A stretch of 62,554 nucleotides of DNA, the filler included, from Stramenopiles sp. TOSAG23-6 (lineage: Eukaryota), in NCBI GenBank assembly GCA_900128565.1. It is 21 parts of 21 records of this genome, joined end to end, with 100 filler letters (N's around TTAATTAATTAA, not from the genome) between each part and the next. Parts side by side here need not be neighbours in the genome. Positions count along the whole stretch, not along the records: positions 29,881 to 32,764 come from LT637767.1; 20 more parts are not named here. The stretch is one strand, 5' to 3'. The notes under the pieces were generated by a model. It was not told the DNA's origin. It saw only the letters and a list, made by a program, of their open reading frames with translations, and did not search any database. The position numbers were made by a program, and so were the translations under genes. Position 1 is the stretch's first letter; every line of letters begins with the position of its first letter. Below, one piece after another: positions 6,114-59,528 of the stretch.

Positions 6114-6692
6114 GGCAGCAAGGTTATGGACAGCTGGTTGGAACTTTTATGCTCCTCCTGAAACTGTCATTTTCCATTTATGGAGTCGAAGTTATCGTCC
6201 GTCATGGCGTCAATTGTTTTCAAAAGAAAGTGTTAAAGGCCGATTAATGTATATATGTTTTATTTTTTTTTTTTAACAAAAAATTCGATTTTTTTTTTTG
6301 TTTTTTTATAAAAATTCCGTACCTAACAAATTTTACAAAAAAAAAATATTTGTTTATGAATACATGATTTAGAAAAAAGAGCTCTACGAAATATAAAAAA
6401 ATATTTTGAACAATCCATAAAAACAAATAATGATAATGTTTCAGCACCTACCTTATTTAGTATGCGTAATTGTCAATTTCGTTCATTTTCTAAATATCAA
6501 GAGAAATGTGGTGTCAATTTTATGTCTAAACAAATAAATGAAAAGGCAAAGTATTCTTCTTACTTGGATACCTCGGAGAATTCAAATCATTCTAATGAGA
6601 GTATCTCCAAAAACACAGAAAAACAAATTCTTCATGTGGAAAATACACGAAATATTCTAAAAATAGTTCAAGACAAATATTTATCACAATGA
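6114..6692 (+). CDS. Skp1-hydroxyproline GlcNAc-transferase-like (Gnt1/GT60) protein, 3' part; exons 6114-6252 and 6366-6692
   Basis: Unlisted exon translates AARLWTAGWNFYAPPETVIFHLWSRSYRP, a GT60 family motif. It joins ORF 6462..6692 via intron 6253-6365. Confidence 0.7.
6253..6365 (+). other. Non-canonical family intron, AT...AT
   Basis: TAT|ATATGTTTT...CGTACCTAAC...GAATACAT|GAT keeps frame. The GT at 6249 gives an immediate stop. Confidence 0.7.
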
Positions 6693-12020: not shown

Positions 12021-14073
12021 GTTCTCTGAGAAAAAGTACTGAAGATTATATAGAAAATATAGAAAATATAGAAAATATAGAAAATATAGAAAATATAGAA
12101 AACATAGAAAATATAGAAAATATAGAAAATATGAATCGTCTTATCTTGACGTCGACATCACCATTAGGGTTAGGGTTCTTAGGGTTAGGGTCAAGTTGTC
12201 TAAGTTTTCATTCTCGTATTGCTGTATGGACACGAAATCCAATCCTCTGGGAACACGAAATCTACAAAGTATTACATTTTATATCATCTCGCCCGTTTTC
12301 ATCTGATTCTGTTTTTGCTAATCGTTTACCATTACTCGCACAATACCATGATAAATCAGTACAAGATGATAAATATATTCATAATGATTTTAATGATTTT
12401 GCATGTTTATGTTCGTTTTCAAAAAAAACAAAAAAAAAATATTTCGTACCAAATTTTATACCTAACAAAAAATTAAATTTTTGGAATATTTTTTTACACT
12501 ACATCGTATTTAAAAAATTCTCAATTACATATTTGTAAGTTGTCCATTGTAATTTTACATTTCATAGAAAATCCAAAGTTTTTTTTTAATTAATACCTAA
12601 CAAAAAAAATTAAATTTTTGAAATTTTTGAAATTTTTGAAAATTTTTTTTTTTTCGCTACAAAATTTCATAGCTAACAAAAAAAAATGAAATTGTTGAAA
12701 TATATTTTCACACTATATGGGCTGTTATTTTATTAGAAGATATTTTAGTATCTAGTATTAAGAGATACTCAAATGAAAAAGTTTCTTTGGATACGTTTGG
12801 TAATATTTCTCATAATAATAACAATCTAGATGTTTCTCTTTGTAGTTATAGTTACCACTATGTACATTTTTAACATTGAATGTAATTTTTTTTTTTTTGG
12901 TCAAAAATTTCATACCTAACAGAATTTTTTTTTTTTTACGAAAAAAAAAAAAAAAAAAAATATTTTTTCACAATGTATGGTACAATAGAAACTTTGCAAC
13001 TTTTTAATCGGTGTTTGACAGAAACCATGCAACATATACACAATACGAATCACATTGGTATACGAAATGTGAGACATCGACATGTGCGTTTTCATCATGA
13101 ATTTGTAATTTTGTTTTTTTTTTTCATTTTTTTCATCATGAATTTCAAATTTATTTATTTTTTTCAAAAAATTTTGTACCTAACAAATTTTGAAATTTTG
13201 AAATATTTTTCCATAGTACGTACATTTGACCCACGAGGTCTTTGGATGGCACCATTATTAAGAGCAATAGAAAGAACTGAAAGACCAATAGATATACAAC
13301 ATATTATAGAAGTAATACATGTGTTAAAGAAAAAAGTAATACAAAAAAAACGTGATTTTTTTTCAAATTTTGAAAATAATGAAAATTTTGAAAATAATGA
13401 AAATAATGAAAATGTTTATTCACCAGAAATTCATGCCTGTCTTGAAGCTATTGATAATGAAATGTGGTTACTTTTCCTTCAATATATATGTTTAATTTTT
13501 TTTTTCAATTTCAAAATATTTTTTTTCGTACGAAATTTTGTACCTAACGAATTTTCTTTTGAAATATTTTTCCAAATTACATGATCATGTAGTGACTGTG
13601 GCTTTACTTGGAGTGTTTGACACTACAGTCATAATGAATGAAATGGAGGGAAGTGACACTCAGCAAATTCGAAATTCATTAGGTACGAAATTTGGTACAG
13701 ATTCATTTTCAAATGAAACATCTAATAAAAAAAAAACGATTCGTGATTTTTGTTTAGATTGGCTTCGATGGTACTGCAGTCACTTTTATGATAGTAATTT
13801 TGTGGATTGTAATACTACAGGAGGGAAAAAATCGTTTTGTGGAGAATTTGGTAGCGATGCAAAAAATACCAAAAATACAAAAAATACAAAAAATACAAAA
13901 AATACAAAAAATACAAAAATTAAAGAATTTCAGTGTTTAATAAATATGTCAAATTCATTGATGAACCTCAAATTAGTTGAATCAGGTTCCCTTGATAAAA
14001 TACGCCAAAGAATAATTCAGTGGTTGCTCAAGTATGAAACTTTTATAGAGAATTTTCAGCTTACTGGAGAATT
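12021..14073 (+). CDS. Hypothetical multi-exon protein (partial); introns 12411-12504, 12535-12718, 12862-12978, 13084-13221, 13486-13582
   Basis: Removing five family introns gives one continuous frame linking ORFs 12131, 12973 and 13538. Confidence 0.6.
13486..13582 (+). other. Non-canonical family intron, AT...AT
   Basis: TAT|ATATGTTT...TTCGTACGAAATTTTGTACCTAAC...TCCAAATTACAT|GAT; joins the two ORFs in frame. Confidence 0.7.
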
Positions 14074-20800: not shown

Positions 20801-23800
20801 CACCAAAACCACCAAAACCACCAANNNNNNNNNNNNNNNNNNNNNNNNNNNNNNNNNNNNNNNNNNNNTTAATTAATTAANNNNNNNNNNNNNNNNNNNN
20901 NNNNNNNNNNNNNNNNNNNNNNNNAACCCAATTAGAGATCCGCCAAGTAGACCATTATCAGCAAATGGAAATCCCATTCCAATTGGTAAACCAAATAAAC
21001 CAAATACAAAAAATAAAAAAAATACAAAAAATAAAAAAAATACAAAAAATACAAAATGTCCAATGTTGATGTCAGTATTTACAAATCTTTCCATTTTAAC
21101 TACGTCACTTCGACGACAACGAGCTAATATTGATTATATTGAAAGAAGTGCTCTGGCTTGTACGTTTTTTTTTAACCCTAACCCTAATGATTCTGTACCT
21201 CCACGTTTTTTTCTTTCAACGCTAACCCTAAACAAAATGTTGTACCTAACAAAAATTAACATTTCTGAAATATTGTCTCGAAATTACAGGTAATCGAATG
21301 TCGATTACTGAAAGTCAAAAAGAGAGATATTGTTTACGTCGTAGACCAGGTCCAGAAGCATCGCCACTATTGACAAAACTATATTATTGTGAAAAGAATA
21401 TAAAATTAAAATATAGAGAAATGTTGAGACAAATTAAGATGGAGAGACGAAACAAGGGTCGGAAAAAAAAAAGAAGTATTATTCATTCGACTCGTAATTT
21501 TCATCAAAAGAAAGAAAAAAAAACATTGAAAGATTTCACAAAACGACAGAAAAAAACCTCTACAATTTCTACACATTTTAATAATTCTAAAACGTCTAAA
21601 CACTCTACAATAAAACTAAAACAACAGCACAAACAGAACCAAAATGTTTTATATAGTGAGTCTAATAGTACTTCTAGTGGTAACAGTATTGAATGTAGTC
21701 ATGTCAATTCGAATTCTTTTCAAGGTAGACATAGAGAAATTATATCAAGAACTACATCATTACTTAGTACAGGCAACACATCAAGTACTATTAAACATAT
21801 AGAAAATACAATGACTGGTCCTAAAAGTATTTCAAGCAACACATCAAGTACTATTAAACATATAGAAAATAGAATGACTGGTCCTAAAAGTATTTCAAGT
21901 AGCAAATCAGGTACAATTAAACATATAGATCATTTTGAAAACAAAACAACACAGATAATAGAATCTACAAATAAAGAATCAAAATGGATCATTGGTGATG
22001 TTTCAGTACAAAAGATATTAAGTGAAGGACAGACAGTGGATAAAAATGACATCATTGATTCTGTTCAAGACAAATTATCACTTGATAAAGACATCGAACG
22101 ACCCATCTCTGTATGGGGTGGAAGAAGTGAAAACATGGCCGGTGTGATTATCGTTGGACCTGATTCTAATGACTCCAATAGAGACATCATTCCACAAAAT
22201 AATACTTATGCTTCTGCATACCCTCCAGGTATAGGTGCTATTGAAACAACAACTCATCACATATCAAATTCAATTGATGAAACAAATATTGAAAAAGCAA
22301 AAGACGAAGCAGATAAAAATGCAGCATTTGCAGAACTTATTCAAAAGTCTAATAAAGGTATTGTATTAGCTAAATTTTGTACGGAGGAAGATCGGATAAA
22401 TAATGAAATTTATCCTGAAGCACAGTATAGTGAGAGTGATCATTACAAATCTGATGTCTCAGATCGGTCAAAAATTATCAAAAAGAAAAAAAGAAAAAAA
22501 GGTAAACGAATTTCCAGATATAAAAGAAACAAAAGAAATGATCAAGTAAATAATATATATAATGAAAGAAATGTAATGAATCAAAATAAATCAATTGAAG
22601 TCTCATTCAAATATGAACGAGATAAAACAGATAAAAACGAAACTTGGTCATTATCCAATCCTAGAATGACGGCAGTATCCAATTCAACAATGACGCAATC
22701 TGAGGATACTTTAGTCACTGATACCCTACATCCTAACCCTAACACTACTACGGTAGTCACGAAATCGGGAACAAATCTATTAAAAGCATGGTTACATAAA
22801 GCTAAATCAAATTTGCAACAACAAGTAGCAGAAAAGCGAGATATAGGAAGATGTACGTTTTCAATACATTGATTTTTTTTTTGTACATTTCATTTTTTTT
22901 TAAATTTCAAATTTATTTAAAAAAAAATGTTTTTTACAATATTTTTCACAATTTATGGTTGCGCTTGCTAGAACGACGATTGGTTGAAAGTACAAGTACG
23001 TATAAAGTACTACGTCATTTAAAACATATCATTGCACGCTTTACAGCATTACCATCAAGAGAACAAAAACAAATCAAATATCAATTGGATATGTTGAAAA
23101 TAAAGAGTAATCCTAACCCTAATGAAAATCCTACCCATAATGAAATCAGTCATCAAAAAAAAAGTAAATTATCGAGAGAAAGACAAAAATACAAAACGAA
23201 ACGCCTCCAATTAAAACTTGTCAAAGCAAATGATAGAATGGTTCAATTTGAAAAACATCTATCAACATTGTCTGTATCTGTAGTAATAGAAGCAATATCT
23301 AGCATACAACAAAATCTTGAATACATGTACGTTTTCAATTTTTCAATGTTTCAATTTTAAGTTTTTTTTTTGTAGTAAATTTTGTACCTAACAAAAAAAA
23401 CTTTTACCGAAAAAAAAATATTTCCCAAAAATACATAGGACAAATGTGTGCAGTTTTGGCCGCTGATTTAACTCGTTGGAACAAAACTGATGATAATTAT
23501 ACAAACACACGAAATATGTCAATGATAAAGTTGATGGAAAGTGATAATAATAAGAATAATAAGAATAATAAGAATAATAAGAAAAAGCTGAAAACAAAAC
23601 AAAAAAGCACCCAACAACGAAAATTGAAACAACGAATGTGTTGGCATTGTGGAATAAAACTGCCTTATACAACTGGAAACTTTTGCGAATTGTGTGGTGT
23701 AGCCCTTCCACCGAGTGTTTCGTTTAATCGTGAATCATCCTTTGGTTCTCCACCTCCAAAACCATTTGGTCCTCCACCTCCAAAACCACCAAAACCACCA

Positions 23801-26800
23801 AAACCACCAANNNNNNNNNNNNNNNNNNNNNNNNNNNNNNNNNNNNNNNNNNNNTTAATTAATTAANNNNNNNNNNNNNNNNNNNNNNNNNNNNNNNNNN
23901 NNNNNNNNNNAACCCAATTAGAGATCCGCCAAGTAGACCATTATCAGCAAATGGAAATCCCATTCCAATTGGTAAACCAAATAAACCAAATACAAAAAAT
24001 AAAAAAAATACAAAAAATAAAAAAAATACAAAAAATACAAAATGTCCAATGTTGATGTCAGTATTTACAAATCTTTCCATTTTAACTACGTCACTTCGAC
24101 GACAACGAGCTAATATTGATTATATTGAAAGAAGTGCTCTGGCTTGTACGTTTTTTTTTAACCCTAACCCTAATGATTCTGTACCTCCACGTTTTTTTCT
24201 TTCAACGCTAACCCTAAACAAAATGTTGTACCTAACAAAAATTAACATTTCTGAAATATTGTCTCGAAATTACAGGTAATCGAATGTCGATTACTGAAAG
24301 TCAAAAAGAGAGATATTGTTTACGTCGTAGACCAGGTCCAGAAGCATCGCCACTATTGACAAAACTATATTATTGTGAAAAGAATATAAAATTAAAATAT
24401 AGAGAAATGTTGAGACAAATTAAGATGGAGAGACGAAACAAGGGTCGGAAAAAAAAAAGAAGTATTATTCATTCGACTCGTAATTTTCATCAAAAGAAAG
24501 AAAAAAAAACATTGAAAGATTTCACAAAACGACAGAAAAAAACCTCTACAATTTCTACACATTTTAATAATTCTAAAACGTCTAAACACTCTACAATAAA
24601 ACTAAAACAACAGCACAAACAGAACCAAAATGTTTTATATAGTGAGTCTAATAGTACTTCTAGTGGTAACAGTATTGAATGTAGTCATGTCAATTCGAAT
24701 TCTTTTCAAGGTAGACATAGAGAAATTATATCAAGAACTACATCATTACTTAGTACAGGCAACACATCAAGTACTATTAAACATATAGAAAATACAATGA
24801 CTGGTCCTAAAAGTATTTCAAGCAACACATCAAGTACTATTAAACATATAGAAAATAGAATGACTGGTCCTAAAAGTATTTCAAGTAGCAAATCAGGTAC
24901 AATTAAACATATAGATCATTTTGAAAACAAAACAACACAGATAATAGAATCTACAAATAAAGAATCAAAATGGATCATTGGTGATGTTTCAGTACAAAAG
25001 ATATTAAGTGAAGGACAGACAGTGGATAAAAATGACATCATTGATTCTGTTCAAGACAAATTATCACTTGATAAAGACATCGAACGACCCATCTCTGTAT
25101 GGGGTGGAAGAAGTGAAAACATGGCCGGTGTGATTATCGTTGGACCTGATTCTAATGACTCCAATAGAGACATCATTCCACAAAATAATACTTATGCTTC
25201 TGCATACCCTCCAGGTATAGGTGCTATTGAAACAACAACTCATCACATATCAAATTCAATTGATGAAACAAATATTGAAAAAGCAAAAGACGAAGCAGAT
25301 AAAAATGCAGCATTTGCAGAACTTATTCAAAAGTCTAATAAAGGTATTGTATTAGCTAAATTTTGTACGGAGGAAGATCGGATAAATAATGAAATTTATC
25401 CTGAAGCACAGTATAGTGAGAGTGATCATTACAAATCTGATGTCTCAGATCGGTCAAAAATTATCAAAAAGAAAAAAAGAAAAAAAGGTAAACGAATTTC
25501 CAGATATAAAAGAAACAAAAGAAATGATCAAGTAAATAATATATATAATGAAAGAAATGTAATGAATCAAAATAAATCAATTGAAGTCTCATTCAAATAT
25601 GAACGAGATAAAACAGATAAAAACGAAACTTGGTCATTATCCAATCCTAGAATGACGGCAGTATCCAATTCAACAATGACGCAATCTGAGGATACTTTAG
25701 TCACTGATACCCTACATCCTAACCCTAACACTACTACGGTAGTCACGAAATCGGGAACAAATCTATTAAAAGCATGGTTACATAAAGCTAAATCAAATTT
25801 GCAACAACAAGTAGCAGAAAAGCGAGATATAGGAAGATGTACGTTTTCAATACATTGATTTTTTTTTTGTACATTTCATTTTTTTTTAAATTTCAAATTT
25901 ATTTAAAAAAAAATGTTTTTTACAATATTTTTCACAATTTATGGTTGCGCTTGCTAGAACGACGATTGGTTGAAAGTACAAGTACGTATAAAGTACTACG
26001 TCATTTAAAACATATCATTGCACGCTTTACAGCATTACCATCAAGAGAACAAAAACAAATCAAATATCAATTGGATATGTTGAAAATAAAGAGTAATCCT
26101 AACCCTAATGAAAATCCTACCCATAATGAAATCAGTCATCAAAAAAAAAGTAAATTATCGAGAGAAAGACAAAAATACAAAACGAAACGCCTCCAATTAA
26201 AACTTGTCAAAGCAAATGATAGAATGGTTCAATTTGAAAAACATCTATCAACATTGTCTGTATCTGTAGTAATAGAAGCAATATCTAGCATACAACAAAA
26301 TCTTGAATACATGTACGTTTTCAATTTTTCAATGTTTCAATTTTAAGTTTTTTTTTTGTAGTAAATTTTGTACCTAACAAAAAAAACTTTTACCGAAAAA
26401 AAAATATTTCCCAAAAATACATAGGACAAATGTGTGCAGTTTTGGCCGCTGATTTAACTCGTTGGAACAAAACTGATGATAATTATACAAACACACGAAA
26501 TATGTCAATGATAAAGTTGATGGAAAGTGATAATAATAAGAATAATAAGAATAATAAGAATAATAAGAAAAAGCTGAAAACAAAACAAAAAAGCACCCAA
26601 CAACGAAAATTGAAACAACGAATGTGTTGGCATTGTGGAATAAAACTGCCTTATACAACTGGAAACTTTTGCGAATTGTGTGGTGTAGCCCTTCCACCGA
26701 GTGTTTCGTTTAATCGTGAATCATCCTTTGGTTCTCCACCTCCAAAACCATTTGGTCCTCCACCTCCAAAACCACCAAAACCACCAAAACCACCAANNNN

Positions 26801-26896: not shown

Positions 26897-27749
26897 AAAA
26901 ATATTTAGTAAATCATAAAACTGACCATGTATTTTGAAAAATATTTTTTTTTTTTGTTAGGTACAAAATTTCGTACGAAAAAAATTAAATTTGAAATGAA
27001 TTGTGAAAACATACGTGAGTGTCGCCACAAACCGTAAACTTTGGAGCAACGCCATCTTCAGCAGGTAAAGCGTGTTCCAGAAGAGTGGGTAAGCTTTTAA
27101 GTAGTTCCAACATTTGTAACAGTATTTGAACAATATACTTTTTGTGTAATCCTTTCTGGCTGCGAAAACGTTCCGTCAAGTCTTTCACAAACTCAGGAGT
27201 TAGTTGACCCGTCTTGGAAAGTCTAGGACCATCGTAACTTGAAGGAACTTCTATTAAATCAACGTCAATTGTTTCTGATACTTTCGGAGCATCTTTTACT
27301 TCTACAGCCTTCTCAAATCTTTCTCTTAAAACAGCCTTCTTACAAGCTGCGACTTTTCTCTTAGCATCTTTGCTTTTTGGCTTTACTTTTGCTACAGCTT
27401 CAAAGCAACGAAGTGCTTGTTTCATTTTACCTAAGCCAATATAGGCGGAACCTCTTCGGTAAAATGCTTTAATATACGTTTTGTCTAAAGAAATTGCTCT
27501 ATTCGCATCTGTCATTGCTGCACCAAATGATTCCATTTTTAAATGCACGGCAGCTCTATTACCTAACAGCGCTGCTGAAGGTGAACAATCGACACCTTTT
27601 GTATAGAACTTTAGAGCAGCCAAATATGTACCTTTCTTGAATTCTACGTTACCTTTATCTTTCCAGTACTTGGCTTGCTCCTCCATTGTACCGATTGATA
27701 CTTCTATATCGCTAGATGTTATTCTTTCAATGTCCATATTTCCTACCAT
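26897..27749 (-). CDS. PPP5: Ser/Thr protein phosphatase 5 (TPR plus PPP catalytic domain), 3'-partial
   Basis: Three TPRs followed by TVCGDTH|GQFYDLLNIF after removing intron 26927-27014. Confidence 0.93.
26927..27014 (-). other. Non-canonical family intron, GT...AT, inside the invariant GDxHGQ motif
   Basis: CAC|GTATGTTTTC...TTTCGTACGAAATTTTGTACCTAAC...TTTTCAAAATACAT|GGT CAG; 88 nt containing no AG. Confidence 0.9.
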
Positions 27750-29685: not shown

Positions 29686-29956
29686 GTACCTTTTCATCAT
29701 TCATTTCAAAAGAAAAAATATTTCGTACCAAATTCCGTATCTAACAATTTTTTTTTTTTTTTTTTTTTTTTATTTTTTTTNNNNNNNNNNNNNNNNNNNN
29801 NNNNNNNNNNNNNNNNNNNNNNNNTTAATTAATTAANNNNNNNNNNNNNNNNNNNNNNNNNNNNNNNNNNNNNNNNNNNNAAAAAATTGTTAGGTACAAA
29901 ATTTCGTACGAAAAAAAAATAAATTCGATTTTTTTTTTTTTTTAAATAAAACATTC

Positions 29957-31265
29957 ATAGTTTTTACAGAAAGTTGTGTATCGGTATCAAGTTGTTTTCG
30001 TTGGTTATGAGAGCATTGACTTATAGTATTTTTTAAATGTTGTATATATGTAAATTCATGAACTCTCAAAACATCTGAAATCGTAGCAGGTTTGATCAAA
30101 CTACCTTCAAGCCATTTTGGTACAATAGTCAATTTCTTTTCTTTTCCATATATTTTGGAAAAATATTTCAAAAAAAAATTTTAAAAATTTGTTAGTTTCG
30201 GAGTATCGTTAGGGTTAGGGCTAGTACCATGTACATTCGACTCGCTTAAGCTATTTTTGTCTACAATATTTATATTATTTTTTGTAAAATTTTGGGTATT
30301 TCCAAAGATATCTTTTTCGTGTTTTGAACCACATAAGACTCGAAGCCGATCGGGGTGTTCTTGGTGGTGTTTACCTGTGTCATGTAAAATGCAATCTGCA
30401 GGAAAAATTATGAGAGTATTTTTTTCAAGATTTTTTTCAAGATTTTTTTCAAGATTAGGGTTAGGGTTACGTTTGACATTTTCATCCAACACAGTTGTAT
30501 TTTTTACATAATTTGATTCCTTTTTTTCATTTTTTTCATTGATTGCAGTATAGTCTTTTGTAATTGATCCTGGTACAAACCTTTCAAAACATATGGGAGA
30601 GTCTGCGCTTTGTTCACTTTCACTGACATTTGAAAATTGGTCTGGATAAAAACCAGGTTCACTCATGAGTTGTCTTTGAGGTGGAACAAATTCTTTTTTG
30701 GGACCACGCATTTTTAATAGACGACGTGGGGCTATATTAGAAACGTTATTTTCATTTTCGTTTTTCTCTCTTAATGTGTTAGAGAAAGAAGGATCTTTCA
30801 CAAAAGCCTGACGTTTTTGTGCTGGAGGGACTGGTGGGTTCGGAGTAAAGACACATGTATTTTGGAAAATTTTTTTTTTGTAAAAAAAGTCGTTAGGTAC
30901 AAAATTTCGTACGAAAAAAATAAATTAAATTTTTTTGTTAAAAAAAATAAATAAAACATACATGGAGACGGATGAGATCGTTTCTGACCTATTGTCAACG
31001 AATCATTAAGAGAAGGCTTTCGAATACTAAGCTGATTAGATAAGAGACTACACAAATCTGAGCTACAATCAGCTTCGCCGACACTATCAAGGGATGATGG
31101 TGTTGAAGTGTCATCACTATTAAAATGTGCCGGCGTCTCATATTCATCCCCACAAAAACCGAGAGGTGTGTGAGATCGACTGCGACGACCAAGTGGAGTC
31201 GCAACAATCACAGAAGGAATAATATTTTCTAATTCTTTCGATACATCATCCTTTTTTGCAGACAT
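29957..31265 (-). CDS. Histone deacetylase family protein with long N-terminal extension, 3'-partial; introns 30855-30961 and 30148-30234
   Basis: ILHDTGKHHQEHPDRL and ATISDVLRVHEFTYIQHL...LDTDT are HDAC N-terminal motifs; frames join after intron removal. Confidence 0.75.
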
Positions 31266-31592
31266 TATGCCTACCAAGAGATGCTTCGCAAATTATAAAA
31301 ACACTATTACTAACTTTTTTTTGAGTGACTAATAAAATTTGATTGTTTGTTTTTTTGACATTTGAAAATTTTCAGTTTTTTTTCAGAATGAATGAATTTG
31401 ATTTCGATTTCGTGTTTTTTTGAATTCGAATTCAATTCAAAGGTTTTTTTTGTTTTTTTTGTTTTGTTTTACCTTCCCCTAACAACAACAACAATACTAA
31501 CAACTTTCTTTCGCTTTTCTTTTTCCAAAATCCTTTTGGACGTGTACCAATAAAGACGTGTTGGTCAGCAAACATTTTAGTCGCTCATATAT

Positions 31593-32764
31593 ATGAAAAT
31601 ATTTCACGTGATGTCAAGAAATACTTCTAATGATGTAAAACATGTGAACTCTTCAGAAGCATTGCGTGTCACAGGTATATTCCGACGGCGTACTCCAATC
31701 TTCCCTTCCGATGGTGAAGGTGTTGAAGTTATGGTTGAAATGGAGGCAGGTGCAGAAGGTATATTGATTATGGAACAAGAACCAAGTTTTCGAAAACAAT
31801 TGCTTGGCTCTACGTCCCAATTAATCCTTTGGGAGGATATTGTTCGAATCTGTGTAGACTTTGACAACGGGTGTTTCATTCTTAGTATTCATTGGGCTGA
31901 GAAGATCCCCTCAAAGTTATTTGGTTTGTATCAGTCGAGTAGCCGGAAATGCAACAGTATTTTTTTGTGCATGTCCCAGATAAAGCAGAAAATAAGACAA
32001 CCAATGAGTATTGACGACGTTGTAGTATGGTTACGTGTTATTTGGTATCGTAAGGCCGAATGTACTCTTACATTTTTACGACAAAAAAAAGAAAAAGCAA
32101 AATTATCTGAAGTTAGTTATTCACCATTGTGTTTAAGTCTTGGTATTGGTAGAGATATTACACCAATTCAGGAAAAACAAATTAAGACTGCAGTGGCTAC
32201 TGAAATTAAAGCGTACGTGCATACAGTAAGAGATTATTGTACAATACCAGCACAAAAAACATTTTGTGGAAAATCTTCAAGTATTGCGGAGTTTTTTTAT
32301 AGTGAAAAATTCTCGTGTAAGTACAAACAAAATGGTGCTCTACGCTTACTCGTCTTTATAAATCCTGTCTCTGGTTCGGGTCATGCACAATCAGCCTATA
32401 ATAAATATGTTGCACCTATTTTTAGCCATGCCGGTATTGATACAAATATTATAATTACAAAAGATCAAGGTCATGCCTTGACACATATGCAAAATTTGAG
32501 TGATTCAGATATTCATTCTTATGATGGGGTGACTATTATGGGAGGAGATGGATTGGTCTGGGAGGTCATAAATATACGTTTTCATTATACATTCTGTCGT
32601 AAAACAATATTTCATAGTACATTTTGTACCTAACAAAAAATATTAAAAAAAAAAAAAATATTTTAAAAAATATTTTAAAAAATATTTCATAGTACATTTT
32701 GTACCTAACAAATTAAAAAAAAAAAAAAAAAAATATTTTTTACGATGCATGGTATATTGAATAA
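31593..32764 (+). CDS. Sphingosine/ceramide kinase (DAGK catalytic domain), 3'-partial
   Basis: LLVFINPVSGSG, GGDG and EVIN|GIL after intron 32574-32750. Confidence 0.88.
32574..32750 (+). other. Non-canonical family intron, AT...AT, with duplicated branch module
   Basis: AAT|ATACGTTTT...2x(ATAGTACATTTTGTACCTAAC)...TTACGATGCAT|GGT restores conserved GGDG..EVING. Confidence 0.85.
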
Positions 32765-32864
32765 NNNNNNNNNNNNNNNNNNNNNNNNNNNNNNNNNNNN
32801 NNNNNNNNTTAATTAATTAANNNNNNNNNNNNNNNNNNNNNNNNNNNNNNNNNNNNNNNNNNNN

Positions 32865-33725
32865 AAAATTTTTTTAAAAAAAAAAAAAAAAAAAAAATAA
32901 TTAATAACATTTTTTTTTTTTTGTAAAATTCGTGCTTTTTTCACAATACATGAAAGGATGCCGAAGAAATTTTATCATGAGGAAGATATTAAATAAACTA
33001 AATTATTGCGATAAAGAAGGAAAAAATGCTTATCCAACATGTATGTTTATTTTTTTTCAATTTTTTAACTAAATTGTTTTTCCTACGAAATTTCGTACCT
33101 AACGTTTTTTTTTTCATATTTCGTGTTTATTTCACAATACATATATAGGCTTGCAATCAGATTATCCATTTACTCGAGAACACGATTTGCGATCAGTAGC
33201 TAAAGAATATGTATGCTTTATTGTTTTTTGATTTTTTATCTATATTTTTTTTTTTTTGATTTTTGAAAAAAAAAATTTCATACCTAACAAATTTTTCAAA
33301 AAAAAAAAAAACTAACCCTAATCCTAATCACAATATATGCTAGTGGTAGTCTTTGTGGCACATCGGGAAAAGGATTGGGAAAATTTGGTGCAGATGGTCT
33401 TTCCATTCTTGCTAAAGCTCTCAAGCTCAATGGAAATCTTCTTTCTCTAACACCTGTATGATTTATTTTTCTTCNACTTTTTTTTCAATTTCGAATTTAT
33501 TTATTTTTTTTTGATTTTTGAAAAAAAAAAAAAATTTCGTACCTAACAAAAAAACAATATTTTTTCACAATATATGATTTGAGTGATGGAATGGTTGAAT
33601 TGAGCAGTTGTAAAATCACAGGTCAATATTATGGAACAACATACAAATCTTTATTTGCTTCTATGGCAATTAACCACGGTAAGTTATATCACATTTTTTG
33701 TTATTGTTAGGTACAGAATTTTATA

Positions 33726-33759
<34 letters not shown>

Positions 33760-35691
33760 TATCACAACAAAGCAGTAAACAGTTACCACAGACATAAACG
33801 AAATTCTTTTTTATTTTTTTTATTAATGACTCACAATTTCATTTTTTTTAACATCATTTTATACTAAACAGCTGATGGGACATGCCAGAATGGAGATAAC
33901 AACAGTCAACCTTCACAAATGCCTTGTATGTGGTTCAAAACTACATCAAAGGTTAAGTATTTTGTTCCTTATATCGAACATAAATATATCAAAAAAGAAG
34001 AAAAATCACATGCAACAGAAGGCATTCACGGGGCTTTCGAACCAAAACTTCGAGTGGTAGTGGAGTTTAATAAAGAAAGAAACGAAACACTAGGAGAATT
34101 TTGTTTTAAGCAACACAAAAAGGGAATGTACATTTTCATTATGATTTTTTTTTTTTTTTTTTGATACGAAATTTCATACCTAACAAAATATTTTGATTTT
34201 TTTTTGAAATATTTTTGTACAATATATTACATATCAAAAATTATCATCTACATCTGATCGAAAGGGCTTCAAACACCGCCGAGGTGACATATTTCCAGAT
34301 AAAAAAATTTCACTGTACAAACCTCCTTCGACAAATGTTATTAAACAATGGTGGAATCCAAAGCGAAAATTTGAAATGCTTAAAAAAACGATAAAAGCAA
34401 ATTCCGTGAGAATATGTATAGATCATAAGACGTCCACTGTCATTAACCCTAGATTATGTCCACATAGAAGCAAAGGAAGTGAAAAAAAGGCGGATTGTGA
34501 CAATTATGGATATTGCATTGATATTGAAGCAACCGACAACATCCACAAATCCAGAATAAAACACAAATCCACTAAACCTTCTAAAGGTTTTATTACTGGG
34601 GACTTGTACACATTTTGCTACAAAACTTATGATGCAATGTTTAATACTGTTATGCTCATGGAGAACCAAGGTATACATCTGTTAAGCAATGAAAAATTTC
34701 TTCCAGACAACAAGAATTTTGGAGAGTTTTGCATGTTAGAAACGGAGAAGGCTAAAAAAGAAAATAGCAAATATTTTAATTGGTTTAGGAGGTCTGAATG
34801 GAACCTAGTTCGCAAAAGTGAAGTAACCATAAAATCTGTCCGACAGAAATCTAACATGCTCACAATAGAAGAATCGGAAAAGAAGTCAGACAATAAAACG
34901 TCCTATGATATACTAAAATCAAAACAATGTAGCTTTCTTCATCCGGGTAATCTTAACTGTCAAGTTCAACACTACCCAAAAAAAGGGACTTGTAAAAATT
35001 TTCAATATTGCTTTGATATGATGTTGAAGCAACAAGGAGAGGCAAAAAAAAAGAAAGGGTACTTATTTTGCTTTGAGACCTTCAAAAATGCAAGTCATGT
35101 ACAATTGAAACTGGAAAGAATGGGTGTTGATGAAACTGAAAGACTTACAACCAAGAGATTGGAATCTCGCAATAAATTTCATTCAAAATCTACTGCAATC
35201 AACATACATGCCTATGAAAAGGACATCAAAATTGCTACATTGGCAGCAGAACATCTTCGCAATAACAAGGAAGATTTGCTTCAAGACAAATCTTACAATA
35301 AAGAAAATTCTCGGGATACAAAAAAATTAGTGGAAACAGCTGAAGATACAATCACTTCATTATTGGAATTCTTGAAAAATCATAAACCAAAGTTTCCAGA
35401 GTTTACAGAGAGTAAGCAAGATGAACTGGAACGAAAAATACAGAGTATCACGAATTTGTCTGTGCTGACCTCTATTGGAAAATGCAACACTGTGATAAAT
35501 TCTGACAAAGCTGAGATTCACAATAAGAAGGTACCGTGTGAAGTGTTTCTAAGCGAATATCTGAAAAAAAACGATGCAGCAGCACGAGAAGAAGAAGATG
35601 ATGATGATGCTGCTGCTGCTGATGATGAAAAAGAAGAAAAAAAAGAAGAAAAAAAAGAAGAAAAAAAAGAAGAAGAAGAAGAAAAAAAACC

Positions 35692-38730: not shown

Positions 38731-38952
38731 NNNNNNNNNNNNNNNNNNNNNNNNNNNNNNNNNNNNNNNNNNNNTTAATTAATTAANNNNNNNNNNNNNN
38801 NNNNNNNNNNNNNNNNNNNNNNNNNNNNNNAAAAAAAAAAATCTTAAAAAAAAAAAAAATTTTAAAAAAAAAAAAAAAAAAAAAAAATTTTAGTTTAGGT
38901 ACAAAATTTCGTACGAAAAAAAAATTATTCAACATTCATAATGTAAACGTAT

Positions 38953-40078: not shown

Positions 40079-41614
40079 ATGTCATGGATTGCAAAGAAAA
40101 CTGAGCTATCAAAGGAAGCCACTGACCCACTAACACAGTTTAATTTGTCATTTCGATTAGAAACACACTATACAACGTCAGATAGATTGTGGAACCTTGC
40201 TGTAAAAGCCGTACAAGACTGTAATTGGACAAAAACATATGTCTTGATGAAACGATACGCAACGTTAGTAACAAAGTATATCCCAAAACATGCTCAATTC
40301 GGAGAAGAAAAGTTTCGCTACGATAAAATGACTGCTCGCAAACGAACAGAGAAAGCTATTGATATGATACGTAAAGCATCCAGTAAGTTAGAAGATGAGT
40401 GTCTAAAACAACAAAATGAACCAAAGCATATAAATGTACCTCCTCCTCCAGACACTGTTGATAAAGCTGTACGTTTTTTTTTTTTTTCGTAGAGAATTTT
40501 GTACCTAAGTTTTTTTTTTTTACTAAAAAAACAATTTTTTGAAATACTTTTTTCACAATTCAAACTCTGGAACTTGAGGCTCGATTTCGTGCACTTCAAG
40601 GAAAAGCTGTTGATCCTCAAATAGCGGTATCTCCTATACGTCCATCAATGCCACCTGCACTACAAAATGTTGTTGATGCTTCAATATGTTTTCATACTGA
40701 ATTTTTTTTACATTTTTTTTTCGTAGTGAATTTTGTACCTAACAAAAAATAATTTTTTACTTAAAAAAAAAAAAATATTGTCTACATATATACGATATAA
40801 TATCATCATCTGATATATCTGATATATCTATACTAAATACACTCAAGATTCATAATTCTCATACAAAAGACATGTCCCAAAAACCTCAAAAAACTCAAAA
40901 AACAAAAGAGCAAATGATTGCGGATAAATTAGCATTGGATGCATTATCACATAATGCATATGCTGTTCCAAAAACACGAAATCTCAGAAATAATATACGT
41001 CGACATAACCCTAACCCTAACACTTCAAAAAAGGAATGCAGTTTGTATGGAAATTTATTACAGAATCTTAGTCATAATTATACATCATATACTCCTCATA
41101 ACACTAACGTTTTTGCTGTACAGTCAGGGAATGAAGAATATACACAAAATGTACTTTTGCCAATTTATCAATTTATCAATTTATCAATTTATAATTTTTT
41201 TTTTTTTTTTGTGGTAAACATTTTTTATACCTAACAATACAAAAAAACATTGACATATTTTTAGACACTTTTTGCATCATCTGTTCAATCTGATTTAGGT
41301 GTATACAAATCACGAGTTCAACACTTGTACGTTGTACCAGTAATTATCCTTTTATTATCATATTTTGTTTAAAAAAAAAAAAAATTTCAAAAAAAAATTT
41401 CAAAAAAAAAAAAAAAATTTTTTTTTTTCAAATTTAACAATTTAACAATTTTTTTTTGTACAATATTTTTTTACAATATTTACATCCTGATATTCAAAAG
41501 CAGGAAGCTGATAAACTTCTTCGTCAAGATCTTTTAAAGGAACAGCAGTTACAAGTATTTGATTGTGCTCCTGATGGAAATTGTCTTTTTCGTGCCGTCA
41601 GTCATCAGTTATTT
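40079..41614 (+). CDS. OTU-family deubiquitinase with N-terminal USP8-dimerisation/MIT-like domain, 3'-partial; introns 40469-40563, 40684-40793, 41151-~41270, 41327-41481
   Basis: TYVLMKRYATLVTKYIPKH is USP8_dimer-like; PDGNCLFRAVSHQL is the OTU catalytic Cys box; exons chain in frame. Confidence 0.72.
40684..40793 (+). other. Family intron, probable AT...AC
   Basis: TCA|ATATGTTTT...TTTGTACCTAAC...CTACATATATAC|GAT; in frame with ORF 40872. Confidence 0.6.
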
Positions 41615-50814: not shown

Positions 50815-52117
50815 ATCCTCATCCGCACTCTGGGCTCTATTCTGTTTATCTTCCACATCACTAGGACATGGTGATGGAGCTCTACTGTCTTCTCCAGTGC
50901 GGCCAGCAAGATCAAAACTACTTGTAGAAGTACAGTGAAAAAATAATATGTATTGTGAAAAAATATTTTTTTTGTAAAATTTGTTAGGTACCAAATTTCG
51001 TACGAAAAAATAAATAAATTCGAAATTGAAAAAAAAATAAAACGTATATTCGATTCAATCCTCGATTGAAAAAAAAATAGTTAAACGACCATAGGCAAGG
51101 AATACCACAATGATGGCTCAGAGGATCTTGTTCCATGTCAGCTAGATAACGATATACCTCGCATTCTTTAACACCTATTGCATCATCAATAGCCTTCCAG
51201 AGTTTAGGCATGTATCGTAAAAAATATTCTTTTTTTTTTANTAAAAATCGTTAAGTACAAATTCTTTTTTTTTTCTACGACAAAAACAATTTAGGTAAAA
51301 AATTGATGTTGAAAACGTACATGAATTCGCTGTTTCGATTAACCAGTGCTAACTTTTGCATTTGGTTGTTAATGTCAGAACATGCAATTTGATATCCAGA
51401 AATTTTCTCAAAGTTATCTGAAGTAAGGCATGAAAAGTCATAATCAAGATTTTCAAAAGTTGCATTTAAGCACTGTACAAGATAAGCAAGAGTTTTATGA
51501 GTGCTGGGTAACGACATGGGTCCTAGTGACGACTCATTTATTTTGCGGAAATATGTTACATTCGAGATTTGTTAGGTATGAAATTTTTTATGAAAAATAA
51601 ATAAATTTGAGGTGATGAAAACATACACTTTGAGTTTCTTCTGGAGGTACTTCTCCTGTCTCCCGTTTGTACATTTCTTGACGATCCTTTTCCTCACTTG
51701 CTTCACGAACATATTGCTTCCGAAGTTTCTTCAAGAGTTTTTTATCCTCGCCTGTAATTTTAATATGAAAATAAGTAAGAAATTGTTACTACATTGTGTC
51801 TCACTAGTGCGCTACAAAAAGAGATGAAAATGTGGTATTGAACCGAGAAGTTCAAAAAGTGTTCCCGTTGGAACTAATAGGATGGGTTGAATGATACACA
51901 GTCGCATAAATAACGAGAGCGGTACCATTAATGAATAATTCATCAAATAGAAGAATCAAGAATCTTGGAAAAGAAAAGAAAGTACGAAGAATAATTACTT
52001 ACCTGCTGCTTTACATGAGAACGCCTCTGCTTGCCCGTTCCATACTTCGTTGCCAACGATACAATCCTGTAAATACGTCGTGGCCCACGCCAATGTAGGA
52101 TTCTGTAAATACTTCAT
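50815..52117 (-). CDS. MAF1: RNA polymerase III repressor MAF1, 3'-partial; canonical intron 51752-52002; family introns 51536-51626, 51210-51320, 50948-51047 and one starting at 50814
   Basis: MKYLQ..EAFSCKAAG|EDKKL, LGPMS..KTLAYLVQCLNATF..DYDFS, LWKAID..ECEVY, LWSFNYFFFNRGLNRI|LFF. Confidence 0.92.
50948..51047 (-). other. Non-canonical family intron, AT...AT
   Basis: CGA AT|ATACGTTTT...TTCGTACGAAATTTGGTACCTAAC...TTCACAATACAT|A TTA TTT restores the MAF1 motif RILFF. Confidence 0.87.
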
Positions 52118-55246: not shown

Positions 55247-55515
55247 TTTCCTCCTTGTAAGAAACAAATATAAAGATATACTAGTACAGTAGTTTTAAAT
55301 TTTCTGAAATTCTGAGTGTGATTTGAGATTTTGACAGAAAAAATAGCAAAATTCACGTAACTGTGTAAACTGTCGTCGTGTGTCGTGTGTGGACATTAAT
55401 TACAACTTATATCCAAATGTCTCGCGTACTAGTTCTACTACTTATAAACCGTTCGTGTAGTTTATATCTATTGGTAGTTGTACATTTGCTATTACTTAAT
55501 TAATTGACTGTTTAC

Positions 55516-56297
55516 ATGATGACTAGTTACATTCTTTCTACATCTCGACTGTCAAGGTTCATGTATACTGCAAAACGTGTGCAAAATAAGACGTTTCTTG
55601 AAAAAAAAAGTCATTTTTCTAGATTTTCATCGAGTCACAGTTTCCATCAAACGTTTTTGTTTTCAACATCCAACGCCAAAAATACCAAAAAAAAAGTACC
55701 TAGTACCATTATATCAATATTACGTATTGCTACTGGAGTATCATTACCTTTAGGTGGAATATATTTCATAACAAAGCCACCAAATTGTTCAGAAGCAATG
55801 TGGTTTACTCCAAAGGGGCAATGCTTCTGGTCATATAAAAATGTAGATGAACAAACAAAACAATTTGAAGAAAAGTATACACAAGGCGATACAATTCTTG
55901 GTACTGGTGCTTATGGTACCGTATATACTTGTGTAGATAATACAACTGGGCACGAATGTGCCGTCAAAATCATTCACAAAGAAAATATGTATGTTTTATT
56001 TTTTTTTTTTCGGTAAAAAAAAAATCCAAAATTTTTTTCGTAGGAAATTTTGTACCTATTTTTTATTTTTTTTTAGAAAATACCTAACCAAAAAAAACAA
56101 AAAAACATTTTTTTTTAATTTTCACAATATAGATGATGCACACGAAATATTTATTCAAGCGAATGATGCACTTCGATATATTTCCTCCTTAGATATTGTT
56201 CATTGCGATATAAAACCTGAAAATTTACTCATCACTGCACGAAATAAAAATGGAAAAATAAAATTGGCTGATTTTGGATGTGCTTTTATAGAAGTAT

Positions 56298-56331
<34 letters not shown>

Positions 56332-57901: not shown

Positions 57902-59056
57902 ATGAGCTCCATGTTAAATGTCTCTACGTCGTTACGCTACCCTAGTGAACCTTCGTATGAAGAACAACTACGTTTGATGGAGTTATATATTCCGACAACG
58001 AGGGATTACTGGACGTTAAAAAGAGCAGTGAAAGATGAAATCATTAAACCAGGATATTCTTCTGCTGATATATCCGATATTCTTCGTGATCTTTTGAGCC
58101 GAATGGGTATTGAAGAACAATTGAAACATATTGTACAAAAACATCATCAACGAGCTTTAGAAAGAACATGTACTGTATCTCTTGATAGGCCACCACCCAT
58201 ACCACAAGTAAGAGAAGCACATCGTTCCATTGAAGCGGCACAGTATACATTTGAGCAAAAAACACTATCTAATCTCAAGAGTCTCCTGAAAGGAAATATG
58301 CCAATCGTTATAAGTCCATATTTTACAAAAAGTAAAGAGACATTAGACAATTCTGAGAAAACTAAGAAAACGCCTAACCCTAACCCTACAGATGTATATA
58401 GTGAGCAAAGAGACATCAAAATCAAAAAAAGCAAAAGTGGCTATATTCAGAAAAACAAATATAGATTCAATTATATAATTGATCCTAACAATATTTTACA
58501 AGAAAATCAAAAAAATGTATGTTTTCATTATGAATTTCAAATTTAATTTTTTTTTTTTTGAAATAGTATGAAATTTTCATAGAAAACAAAAACAAAAAAA
58601 ACAAAAAAAATTTCAAAGCAAATATTTTTTTTTTTCATCAATATCGAATTTCTATTTTTTTTCACAATATATACACCATCAGTGCATGTTGATACAAAAC
58701 ATTCAACTGTTCATTCAAATGTTCATTCAAATGAAAATATACAACAACAAAAAAATATTTTGTTTAATTCTGCTGAATTTCTAGAAACTTTGGTATCAAT
58801 ACAATGTATAAATAATTGTCCATCTCAATCAAATACAATACAAAACATGGATAACAGAAACCCTAACCCTAAGAACTCTAAGAACACTAATGGTGATGAT
58901 GCTCAAAAAAACAATATTGAAAATTATAAAACAGATTTTCGATCAGCACCAAAAGATTTTGCTCTTATTCAAATACTTTTAGATACACCTAATATGAAAG
59001 AATACGTTTTCATTATTTCATTTTTTTTAATACGAAATTTTGTACCGAAACAAAAC

Positions 59057-59091
<35 letters not shown>

Positions 59092-59528
59092 AAAATTTTT
59101 TTTTTTNNNNNNNNNNNNNNNNNNNNNNNNNNNNNNNNNNNNNNNNNNNNNNNNNNNNNNNNNNNNNNNNNNNNNNNNNNNNNNNNNNNNNNNNNNNNNN
59201 NNNNNNNNNNNNNNNNNNNNNNNNNNNNNNNNNNNNNNNNNNNNNNNNNNNNNNNNNNNNNNNNNNNNNNNNNNNNNNNNNNNNNNNNNNNNNNNNNNNN
59301 NNNNNNNNNNNNNNNNNNNNNNNNTTTTTTTATAGGAAATTTTTTCCCTAACAAAAAAAAAAAATTTACCAAAAAAAAAAAAAAAAAAAATTGTATATAT
59401 ATATATTTCACATTACATGTGGATCAACTATGTTATTAGAATACTCCAAAAGTGGCATTCCACAATGTTTACGATATCGTATTTGGTATAAGATTCTTAA
59501 TGGAATTGTGAAACCGACAAAACAGTTT
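57902..59528 (+). CDS. TBC1D19: TBC1D19-like Rab-GAP, 3'-partial; intron 58517-58672 and others
   Basis: AQYTFEQKTLSNLKSL, EFLETLVSI, ALIQILLDTPNMKE and downstream exon SKSGIPQCLRYRIW (TBC motif A). Confidence 0.7.

Follow-up and report, generated by a model that had tools for sequence, protein, structure and literature searches.

The window analysed here is a stretch of 62,554 nucleotides from Stramenopiles sp. TOSAG23-6 (assembly GCA_900128565.1); it is no single molecule, being made up of 21 contigs of about 2.9 kb each that are linked by N44-TTAATTAATTAA-N44. On one of these contigs an open frame ends in exon 1 of a sphingosine-kinase/diacylglycerol-kinase-like gene (Table 1). The frame matches Pfam DAGK_cat (3.7e-13, profile positions 1-73 of 125) and gave 1151 HMMER matches at E<=1e-3, and its alignment with human SPHK1 (3vzb_A) reaches the final exon 1 residue (..GGDGLVWEVIN = ..SGDGLMHEVVN); the kinase exon had no match in the protein collection. 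From the DNA, 32574-32750 is read as a spliceosomal intron of this gene with AT..AT ends, whose extra length and second box are due to an internal 63-nt direct repeat.

A G[DG]G..E..N motif is present in 87 of the best 150 HMMER matches, and the residue that follows it is G in 76, A in nine and S in two of the 87. Across the predicted mRNA junction, AAT/GGT (slashes mark junctions throughout), the window reads EVIN/GILN and the best HMMER match EVLN/GIMSR, and homologues are read as N/GIM, N/GVL and N/GLL. The initial annotation had held that the conserved EVING forces the A at 32574 into the intron. This stands insofar as no slide of the boundary yields a GT start; the boundary itself, however, slides by 1-2 bases, giving AT-AT, TA-CA or AT-GC, and none of these readings begins with GT or ends with AG.

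Table 1. Positions of the kinase gene features, the predicted A-first introns and the PP5 anchor intron, counted along the window.
Feature	Position	Strand	Remarks
Open frame ending in exon 1, sphingosine-kinase/diacylglycerol-kinase-like gene	31581..32573	+	last residues ..IMGGDGLVWEVIN
Predicted intron, 177 nt, read AT..AT	32574..32750	+	family alignment (both ends), frame, homologue motif EVxN/G
Donor ATACGTTTT	32574..32582	+	consensus GTAYGTTTT with A at +1
Internal direct repeat	32602..32739	+	two 63-nt copies, spacing 75, 90% identity
First GTACCTAAC box	32626..32634	+	within upstream repeat copy
Second GTACCTAAC box	32701..32709	+	second A 42 nt from proposed 3' end (family median 41)
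3' motif TTTACGATGCAT	32739..32750	+	aligns with family TTCACAATACAT
Exon 2, first 14 nt	32751..32764	+	GGT ATA TTG AAT AA = GILN; contig stops at 32764
A-first intron ATATGTTTT .. GAATACAT	6253..6365	+	slide -2 gives AT-AC
A-first intron ATATGTTTA .. AATTACAT	13486..13582	+	85% identity to G-first copies
A-first intron, acceptor ambiguous	40684..40787	+	AT 40787, AC 40793, AT 40796; slide +4 gives GT-AT
A-first intron ATACGTTTT .. CAATACAT	50948..51047	-	upstream exon of doubtful coding quality
A-first partial copy ATACGTTTA .. GTACCTAAAC	38831..38952	-	cut off by contig end
A-first partial copy ATACGTTTT .. GTACCGAAAC	59002..59106	+	cut off by N gap
PP5 phosphatase anchor intron	26927..27014	-	..GDTH / GTATGTTTT .. 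AAAATACAT / GQFYDLLNIF

A second predicted junction falls in a PP5 phosphatase gene (Pfam PPP5 match, 1.8e-29), inside the invariant GDxH/GQ motif, where the intron would run GT..AT (or TA..TG after a slide of +1). The PP5 homologues P0002 and P0004 read CGD[IV]HGQYYDLLN[IV]F, and the database gene call for this very gene, P0001, continues into the intron (..GDTHVCFHNSFQI). That read-through call and relatives at 36-44% identity were present in the protein collection; a spliced PP5 product was not found there. Matches of PP5 in the protein atlas were generic eukaryotic PP5 clusters. The predicted mRNA junctions are anchored in this way at two conserved protein motifs, and the predicted ends restore the reading frames: with the acceptor set blindly by a matrix of the 3' motif, the frame closed in 29 of 38 introns (chance 1/3; P = 7e-8).

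Both introns are copies of a repeat family whose members share homology from end to end (pairwise identity: median 0.69, and 0.85-0.96 in the best pairs, some of them across contigs) and all lie sense to the gene. The family pattern is exon ..AT / GTAYGTTTT(C/A), a T-rich stretch, [G/A]TACCTAAC, about 41 nt, and TTYCAMAATAYAT / G...; as RNA, donor and box read RUAYGUUUU and GUACCUAAC. The host sequence is AT-rich. We counted GTACCTAAC 52 times in the window against 0.15 expected (about 43 when duplicated contigs are left out), and ATAYGTTT 36 times against 13 +/- 3.75 expected, the latter count taking in duplicate contigs and chance antisense matches. Exact duplicates (one group of four identical contigs, one of two) and N runs occur in the contig set, and 49,013 bases of unique sequence were screened for introns; no second intron class was seen among the placeable introns in these bases. 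The statistics that follow refer to a core set of 37 curated complete introns, of which the one at 56294 lies in a 281-nt tandem copy, 100% identical, and is for that reason not independent. Further members carried box variants (CTTAAC in two members, CCTAAG, CTACTAAC) with donor and 3' motif unchanged.

The family is strict at its donor and unorthodox at its 3' end. By position, the 37 donors have G (32) or A (5) at +1, T at +2 in every copy, A at +3 in 34, T (23) or C (14) at +4, G (32), A (3) or T (2) at +5 and T at +6 in 34, with a T run at +7 to +9; the core of these curated donors is of the yeast type, GTATGT/GTAYGT. Of the 37 introns, 28 end in AT and three in AG, and the yeast-type YAG acceptor was not found as the family rule. 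Because frame and motif together chose the curated acceptors, the terminal-pair counts are partly model-dependent: GT-AT 23, AT-AT 5, GT-TT 4, GT-AG 3, GT-AA 1 and GT-TG 1. For 22 of the 37 introns there is no canonical reading under any slide, and 12 can be slid to AT-AC. Odd acceptors, which the initial annotation listed as a minor-intron trait, are the rule in the family.

Seven A-first sites (6253, 13486, 32574, 38952-, 40684, 51047- and 59002) had been proposed to form one intron family, and we agree: all carry the T run and the box or a near-box. Five are complete, those at 38952(-) and 59002 being incomplete, and together the seven represent a minority of about 56 family donors that could be placed, a figure for which partial and variant copies were counted by eye. 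The AT-AT and AT-AC ends proposed for them hold in part. AT-AT is the curated reading of five introns, but a slide of -2 gives AT-AC for those at 6253, 13486 and 51047, and that at 40684 also reads as GT-AT. For four of the five complete A-first copies the closest relative is G-first (6253 with 47002, 0.82; 13486 with 2222, 0.85; 32574 with 27014, 0.78; 51047 with 8341, 0.88); the closest relative of 40684 is the A-first copy at 51047 (0.79), with a G-first copy just behind (0.78). Since nearest relatives are mostly G-first, A at +1 is not the mark of one subfamily.

One could suppose that the G-first copies are spliced as proposed and that the A-first copies are defective or spliced otherwise, through a cryptic +5 GT, by retention or in decaying genes, so that no true AT-AT class exists. 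The G1-to-A change in yeast, which blocks the second splicing step, points this way, as do the GT-AT reading of 40684, which leaves the mRNA unchanged, the poorly coding look of the exon upstream of 51047 and the two incomplete copies among the seven. Splicing from the +5 GT to an end placed 2 nt further upstream would moreover keep the frame in every A-first copy, adding two codons. At 32574, however, two residues would then intervene between an N and a G that directly follow one another in 76 of 87 homologues. Open frames on the flanks extend over 331 codons at 32574, 200+174 at 13486 and 66+108 at 6253, and seven A-first copies among about 56 donors, mostly with G-first nearest relatives, exceed what random damage to a single position would produce. 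We regard this account as unlikely. The N/G motif is the only observation that speaks against use of the +5 GT at 32574.

Errors in a fragmentary assembly are a still less probable source of the +1 A and the AT ends, to the point of being scarcely credible. The contigs are indeed very short, with exact duplicates, N runs and a 281-nt tandem loop at full identity, and many of them break in the family interior. Yet the identical family position carries A in seven separate copies whose flanks all differ, 28 of the 37 copies share the AT end, and two junctions fit conserved protein motifs exactly.

All 37 copies lie sense to the stronger coding strand, and 16 of 34 unique contig ends fall within family copies. 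Whole-length likeness, uniform sense and copies at contig ends together make the family look like an introner. Introners, which are repeats that generate introns, are described from Micromonas, Aureococcus, dinoflagellates and many aquatic protists. No autonomous coding partner of the family was seen in the window. A target-site duplication beyond the consensus AT is weak or absent: in a permutation test, exon end and intron end matched at positions -3 to -6 in 58 cases against 50.8 (p = 0.035), and there was no signal at +1.

The termini are inverted repeats of each other, short and imperfect (GTAT(G)TTTT .. AAAATAC), and 'AT' flanks both sides in 25 of 37 copies. Together with the high-copy repeat behaviour, these features would suit elements that, like an excising transposon or the internal eliminated sequences of ciliates, leave at the DNA level and are not spliced from RNA. 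We consider this very improbable. Uniform sense orientation is what removal at the RNA level requires and a constraint that excision would not need; the copies carry a yeast-like donor and branch box at yeast-like spacing, the long standard-code open frames speak against a typical ciliate, and the exon/intron end match is weak beyond the consensus. Nor did folds pair the 5' end with the 3' end consistently (10/37); a consistent box hairpin was likewise not found (9/37), and the end-duplex energy was -2.1 against -1.3 +/- 1.6 in shuffles. A palindrome, GTACGAAATTTCGTAC, lies directly upstream of CTAAC in some copies only.

The published introners (PNAS 2025, PMC12130899, in the parts drawn on here) resemble the family in being short elements with their own splice signals copied into unrelated gene sites, with near-identical copies, high intron density and assembly breaks at copies. 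They differ from it in that family copies mostly end with AT and some start with AT. Curation in that work, as described in those parts, accepted AG and AC 3' ends as familiar and dropped other families unless they were RNA-supported. A clear target-site duplication or a tie to a transposase was not found for the family. Scanned with the short 14-mer probe ATTTTGTACCTAAC, metagenomes gave no family copies among at least 119 loci, mostly in bacterial-looking genes, and genome and viral contig collections gave none with a 21-mer or with a gapped 27-position probe that had 12 matches in the window and 0 in shuffles. One DNA run, probably the source, matched the window with a share of 0.91 and five runs with small shares; the five are four seawater/marine metagenomes and one metatranscriptome (0.07), and they have no bearing on expression or habitat.

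The initial annotation left two alternatives for the splicing of the family, a re-specified, massively expanded minor spliceosome or a relaxed major one, and pointed to a likeness to minor introns. That likeness is present in the purine at +1, the T at +7 to +9, the rigid box that has CCT..AAC in common with the U12 consensus, the non-AG ends and the lack of G at exon position -1 (0/37). The adenosines of the 3' motif, moreover, are spaced from the end in a U12-like way (6-9 nt) and could be the real branch site. The features that define U12 introns, however, were not found where we tested them. Positions +5/+6 read GT instead of CC, and GT there is the mark of U6 ACAGAGA pairing; the second A of the box is separated from the 3' end by 29-59 nt (median 41), with none of the 37 at 28 nt or less; CCTTAAC is absent from all 37 curated copies; and the family is the sole intron class in 49 kb. 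The U12 branch motif, TTCCTT[G/A]AC, is close to the 3' end, about 10-20 nt away from it in animals. The perfect partner for UGUUU is one change away from U6 AUACAGAGA and two from U6atac, and we know of no precedent for a genome with essentially only U12-type introns. Splicing of the family by such an expanded minor spliceosome, or by a hybrid of both systems, seems to us improbable. The interpretation in the initial annotation is thus upheld in part: of its two alternatives, a re-specified or relaxed major spliceosome is the better reading.

The nearest precedent on the minor side is Physarum polycephalum, described (in the portion of bioRxiv 10.1101/2020.10.12.336362 used here) as having more than 20,000 U12-type introns with co-evolved snRNA, so that growth of a U12 system is documented. 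Its non-canonical U12 pairs include GT-AT (17%) and AT-AT (8%), both frequent there, and the same portion gives the U12 donor consensus as [G/A]TATCCTT. Purine at +1, a T-run donor of the RTATC[C/T]TTT type, a fixed branch motif and many copies are shared with the family, whose donor differs from that of Physarum at +5 alone. At that position Physarum has C and the family G, and the distance to the 3' end is 9-12 nt for the Physarum branch A and 29-59 nt for the family box. U2-type introns are also the large majority in Physarum, where a matching U12 snRNA was found, and no second class was seen beside the family. A bias against exon -1 G is a minor-intron trait, and -1 G is taken as a cue for the major spliceosome (NAR 2024, PMC11347168, in the parts used). 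The minor-like and hybrid introns treated there mix major and minor features as the family does, but are rare, occur in GT-AG-dominated genomes and include, in those parts, no repeated element.

Yeast-type U2 introns have the form GTATGT .. TACTAAC .. YAG. With them the family shares the GTATGT core, a rigid TAC-TAAC-like box and a box-acceptor gap of tens of nucleotides; it departs from them in the extra C of its box (TACCTAAC), the extension of the donor by TTT and the AT ends of 28/37 copies. Extended atypical donors also occur within a major system: the abstract on Entamoeba, likewise an AT-rich protist (bioRxiv 10.1101/2022.06.08.495308), describes a near-universal donor of this kind and co-evolution of U1 with the introns. 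Entamoeba is intron-poor, and that abstract mentions neither an introner family nor non-AG ends. In Fritillaria borealis (NAR 2026, PMC13326754, in the part used), the GT/AG rule has mostly been left genome-wide while core U2-type machinery was kept and 3' factors changed; there the ends are diverse and poorly conserved, whereas family ends and box are highly conserved, with a GT start in 32 of 37. Diplonemid non-canonical introns have no conserved ends, unlike the family. Among the literature matches listed, taken on titles and abstract starts, nothing relevant dealt with GT-AT/GU-AU introns, and nothing relevant among those listed linked TACCTAAC with introns.

The reading we favour, and hold to be probable, is that 32574-32750 is a spliceosomal intron and an introner-like copy, that the family supplies nearly all introns here, and that splicing is most likely of the U2 type. 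We infer removal at the RNA level. The main U2-type spliceosome would read the yeast-like GUAUGU core by U6 ACAGAGA-type pairing, the branch-point binding protein and U2 would recognise the box, branching would take place at the CCUAAC adenosine, and ligation would follow directly after the conserved 3' motif, with AU rather than AG as the final two bases. In the step-2 active site the terminal U might pair with either purine at +1 (G.U or A-U), and on this proposal A-first copies would be tolerated because the terminal U could pair with G or A alike. Such U2-type splicing predicts a U6 with AAACAGAGA or similar and a U2 region matching [G/A]UACCUAAC. No snRNA was found in the window, where an Rfam search gave one tRNA only. 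Standard U2 GUAGUA pairs only with the CUAAC of the box, which leaves the conserved GUAC upstream in it unexplained. The lack of exon -1 G, the purine at +1 and the GT-AT/AT-AT pairs, which are more typical of minor introns, are counter-points to a major-type reading, and the favoured reading of 32574-32750 has as a further weak point that exon 2 spans just 14 nt.

A bolder version, which we put forward tentatively and think possible rather than probable, is that AU replaces AG genome-wide and that G and A alternate at +1 through pairing with the terminal U, a self-propagating introner having spread this code and either U2 having changed or the machinery being partly minor-derived. If this were true, the branch-binding region of U2 would be predicted to read GUAGGUAU instead of GUAGUAU, and a region so changed would also account for the alternation of G and A before UACC.

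Mostly-AT 3' ends and occasional AT starts in a repeated intron family would be an unusual splicing rule. The 3' AG and the 5' G are among the most conserved signals of eukaryotic gene expression and are in mutual contact in the spliceosome's catalytic centre. Programs for gene finding, and surveys of introners, that admit only AG or AC ends would miss or drop introns of this family, as the call P0001 does in reading through one of them. If true, strict extended signals with AU ends and a tolerated A at +1 would amount to a natural experiment on how the bases at the two ends of an intron are recognised, and would bear on the limits of co-evolution between a spliceosome and a proliferating introner.

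Counts in the window have to allow for its make-up: 21 separate contigs, each of 2,873-2,893 bases and ordered from longest to shortest, joined by N44-TTAATTAATTAA-N44 linkers (e.g., 2894-2993 and 32765-32864), with a G+C content of 24-36%. Because identical contigs recur (a set of four and a second pair; see table), raw counts are too high, and dropping the duplicates leaves 49,013 bases of unique sequence. The branch motif GTACCTAAC (the box), which characterizes the repeated intron family, occurs 52 times in the raw window against 0.15 expected, and about 43 times without the duplicated contigs. ATAYGTTT occurs 36 times in the raw window against 13 expected, several of these being duplicated contigs or chance antisense matches. 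Our analysis confirms and extends the observation in the initial annotation, which had named seven introns beginning with ATAYGTTT: at all seven, this A-first start precedes the T run typical of the family and then a branch box, or a close match to one. Five are complete introns; the other two are cut by a contig end and an N gap, respectively.

Coordinates of features in the joined contigs, with strand and evidence where available
Feature	Position	Strand	Evidence
Target segment	right end of contig 29881-32764	+	
Complete A-first introns	6253, 13486, 32574, 40684		
Complete A-first intron	51047	-	
A-first copy cut by contig end	38952	-	
A-first copy cut by N gap	59002		
GTAAGT-donor intron	33676-33800	+	
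Second GTAAGT donor	12535		
Intron in PP5 phosphatase gene	26927-27014	-	
281-nt tandem unit, x1.9, to contig end	56081-56604		100% identity
Four mutually identical contigs	14953-17838, 17939-20824, 20925-23810, 23911-26796		
Second identical contig pair	32865-35747, 35848-38730		
tRNA gene, sole Rfam RNA match in window; stops exactly at contig end	11794-11866	-	Rfam 63 bits
Ankyrin-repeat gene without introns, recurring unit ..GHLEVLQWLRSQNPPCPW..	54278-55294	-	Pfam Ank_4 7.9e-25
CCTAACCCTA sites	4951, 5564, 5636, 12165, 12180, 15205, 16760, 17140, 30210, 30456, 39846, 41010, 50058, 58373, 58862		

The curated set comprises 37 complete introns, free of duplicates and each with [G/A]TACCTAAC; one of them (56294-56415) falls in a 281-nt tandem copy of 100% identity and counts as non-independent. 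In the 5’ half of the consensus, an exon ending ..AT is followed by GTAYGTTTT(C/A), a T-rich stretch and often CGTACGAAATTT[T/C]; the 3’ half comprises GTACCTAAC, an A/T stretch of varying length and TTYCAMAATAYAT, after which exon 2 opens with G. Lengths range from 88 to 177 nt (median 107), and the second A of CCTAAC lies 29-59 nt (median 41) from the 3’ end. The first intron base is G in 32 copies and A in 5, +5 is G in 32/37, +6 is T in 34/37, and the last base is T in 32/37. Since the terminal dinucleotide is AT in 28 of the 37 and AG in just 3 (TT 4, AA 1, TG 1), a non-AG acceptor is the rule within the family. The terminal pairs are GT-AT (23), AT-AT (5), GT-TT (4), GT-AG (3), GT-AA (1) and GT-TG (1). 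Intron removal leaves the junction consensus AT/G (A at exon -2 in 28/37; T 31, A 4, C 2 and G 0 at -1; G at the first base of exon 2 in 23/37), standing where other eukaryotes have the AG/G proto-splice site, with T in place of G at the exon 1 end and the intron 3’ end alike. About 12 further members have box variants (CTTAAC, CCTAAG, CTACTAAC) or GTAAGT donors with the 3’ motif unchanged. One GTAAGT intron ends in ..ATCACAACAAAG and has GTACCTAAC in antisense only (minus strand, 33706-33714), and the other donor is paired with the usual ..CACACTATAT end; non-GTAYGT donors therefore share the family 3’ motif.

Placement of the intron ends was assessed by taking GTAYGT-like sites as donors and choosing acceptors blindly with a 3’-motif matrix. 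Reading frames joined across 29 of 38 introns, against one third by chance (P = 7e-8); the misses were mostly wrong matrix picks, each with a frame-consistent AT or TT at the motif end. In the PP5 gene (Pfam PPP5 1.8e-29), exon 1 closes with ..FTVCGDTH and GQFYDLLNIF is encoded past ..AAAATACAT; in the protein collection, two homologues have FTVCGD[IV]HGQYYDLLN[IV]F. This motif fixes the intron as GT..AT (a one-base slide gives TA..TG); the database gene call at this locus, P0001, runs on into the intron. For the target, the 177-nt intron at 32574-32750, exon 1 (..GGDGLVWEVIN) aligns with human sphingosine kinase 1 to its last residue and has 1,151 relatives at E<=1e-3 in a full HMMER search. 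Among the best 150 relatives, 87 carry the G[DG]G..E..N motif; 76 of these continue with G, 9 with A and 2 with S. In the best relative, IMGGDGLIWEVLN is followed by GIMSR; the target locus reads IMGGDGLVWEVIN, the intron, then GGT ATA TTG AAT (GILN), with just 14 bases of exon 2 present before the contig ends.

As exon 1 and intron both usually end in AT, many boundaries can be moved with the mRNA unchanged. A two-base slide gives an AT-AC reading in 12/37 introns, including A-first 6253, 13486 and 51047, and for 22/37 no slide yields a canonical reading. The target intron fits AT-AT, TA-CA or AT-GC, and no placement of it begins with GT or ends with AG; for 40684, GT-AT is a further reading. 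A-first copies permit another in-frame mRNA, in which the GT at +5 serves as the donor and the intron ends 2 nt earlier, adding two codons; at 32574 this would insert two residues between N and G, which are adjacent in most homologues.

Yeast-type U2 introns have a GUAUGU donor core and a TAC-TAAC box some tens of nucleotides from the 3’ end. The family resembles them in its GUAUGU core, TAC-TAAC-like box and box-to-end distance, and its +5 G and +6 U would pair with U6 ACAGAGA, positions at which U12-type introns carry CC. A second intron class was not found on these contigs, so the family would be served by the cell’s main spliceosome. That machinery would be of the major type, with its choice of 3’ end re-specified from AG to AU. 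The terminal U could pair with either G or A at +1 in the step-2 active site, which would account for the A-first copies. A standard U2 leaves the conserved GUAC before CUAAC unaccounted for; pairing with [G/A]UACCUAAC is predicted for a U2 whose branch-binding region carries an additional G. We infer RNA-level removal, the branch site and the +1/terminal-U pairing from the sequence. Rfam identified no snRNA in the 62,554-base window.

The initial annotation had proposed a U12-like or hybrid mechanism; this interpretation is only partly supported, although the resemblances that it listed are real. Two more can be added: G is absent from exon -1 in all 37 copies, an absence given as a minor-intron trait in PMC11347168, and GT-AT and AT-AT rank with the most frequent non-canonical pairs of U12 introns in Physarum (bioRxiv 10.1101/2020.10.12.336362). 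On a U12 reading, the candidate branch site would be the adenosines that the conserved 3’ motif places 6-9 nt before the intron end. However, the family departs from U12-type introns in every defining feature tested: donor core, branch motif, its distance and rarity. We know of no genome with U12-type introns only. This family is the sole class seen here, and we consider a U12-type identity very improbable. The best explanation, held with fair confidence, is an introner-like family of U2-type introns whose acceptors are AT and whose donors are occasionally AT.

Similarity between copies extends over their whole length, beyond the signals: pairwise identity has a median of 0.69 and rises to 0.85-0.96 in the best pairs, some of them on different contigs. 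Of the 34 unique contig ends, 16 are located within family copies; the breaks in the assembly are thus due to the family, whose copy number in the genome must be very high. Each of the 37 copies is sense to the stronger coding strand. Whole-length similarity, contig ends in copies and uniform orientation together bear the signature of an introner, i.e., a repeated element that brings splice signals with it. Of the complete A-first copies, four have a G-first copy as their closest relative; the fifth, 40684, is nearest to A-first 51047 (0.79), narrowly above a G-first copy (0.78). A at +1 thus looks like a recurrent, tolerated state. A target-site duplication past the consensus AT was not shown (p = 0.035 at -3 to -6, no +1 signal), nor was a consistent RNA structure (end pairing in 10/37 folds, box hairpin in 9/37).

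Some copies, e.g., 3845-3865 (minus strand) and 33080-33100, have a perfect 16-nt palindrome, GTACGAAATTTCGTAC, before CTAAC; others have T for C, which would preserve a G.U pair in RNA, and minimum-energy folds form this hairpin in just 9/37 copies. The 281-nt unit, in a protein-kinase gene, contains an intron 3’ part, an exon and an intron 5’ part; it reflects either a loop that the repeated intron caused in the assembly or a tandem duplication of very recent origin. The telomere-like CCTAACCCTA, whose hexamer is identical to the branch box core, is present 25 times where 0.02 would be expected, and about 16 of its sites remain once duplicated contig copies are set aside; the sites inspected lie mostly within open reading frames as Asn-Pro-Asn-Pro, and 15205 lies within an intron.

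A literature search found no report of TACCTAAC with an intron, and coverage of mostly open papers gave none of GT-AT or GU-AU introns like these, though either may be described in other words. The closest known systems are introners (PMC12130899), the transformed U12 system of Physarum (bioRxiv 10.1101/2020.10.12.336362), the non-canonical introns of Fritillaria with a modified major spliceosome (PMC13326754) and the co-evolved donor and U1 of Entamoeba (bioRxiv 10.1101/2022.06.08.495308). In the family, strict extended signals go together with a 3’ end that is usually AT, a combination absent from the parts of these accounts that were consulted.
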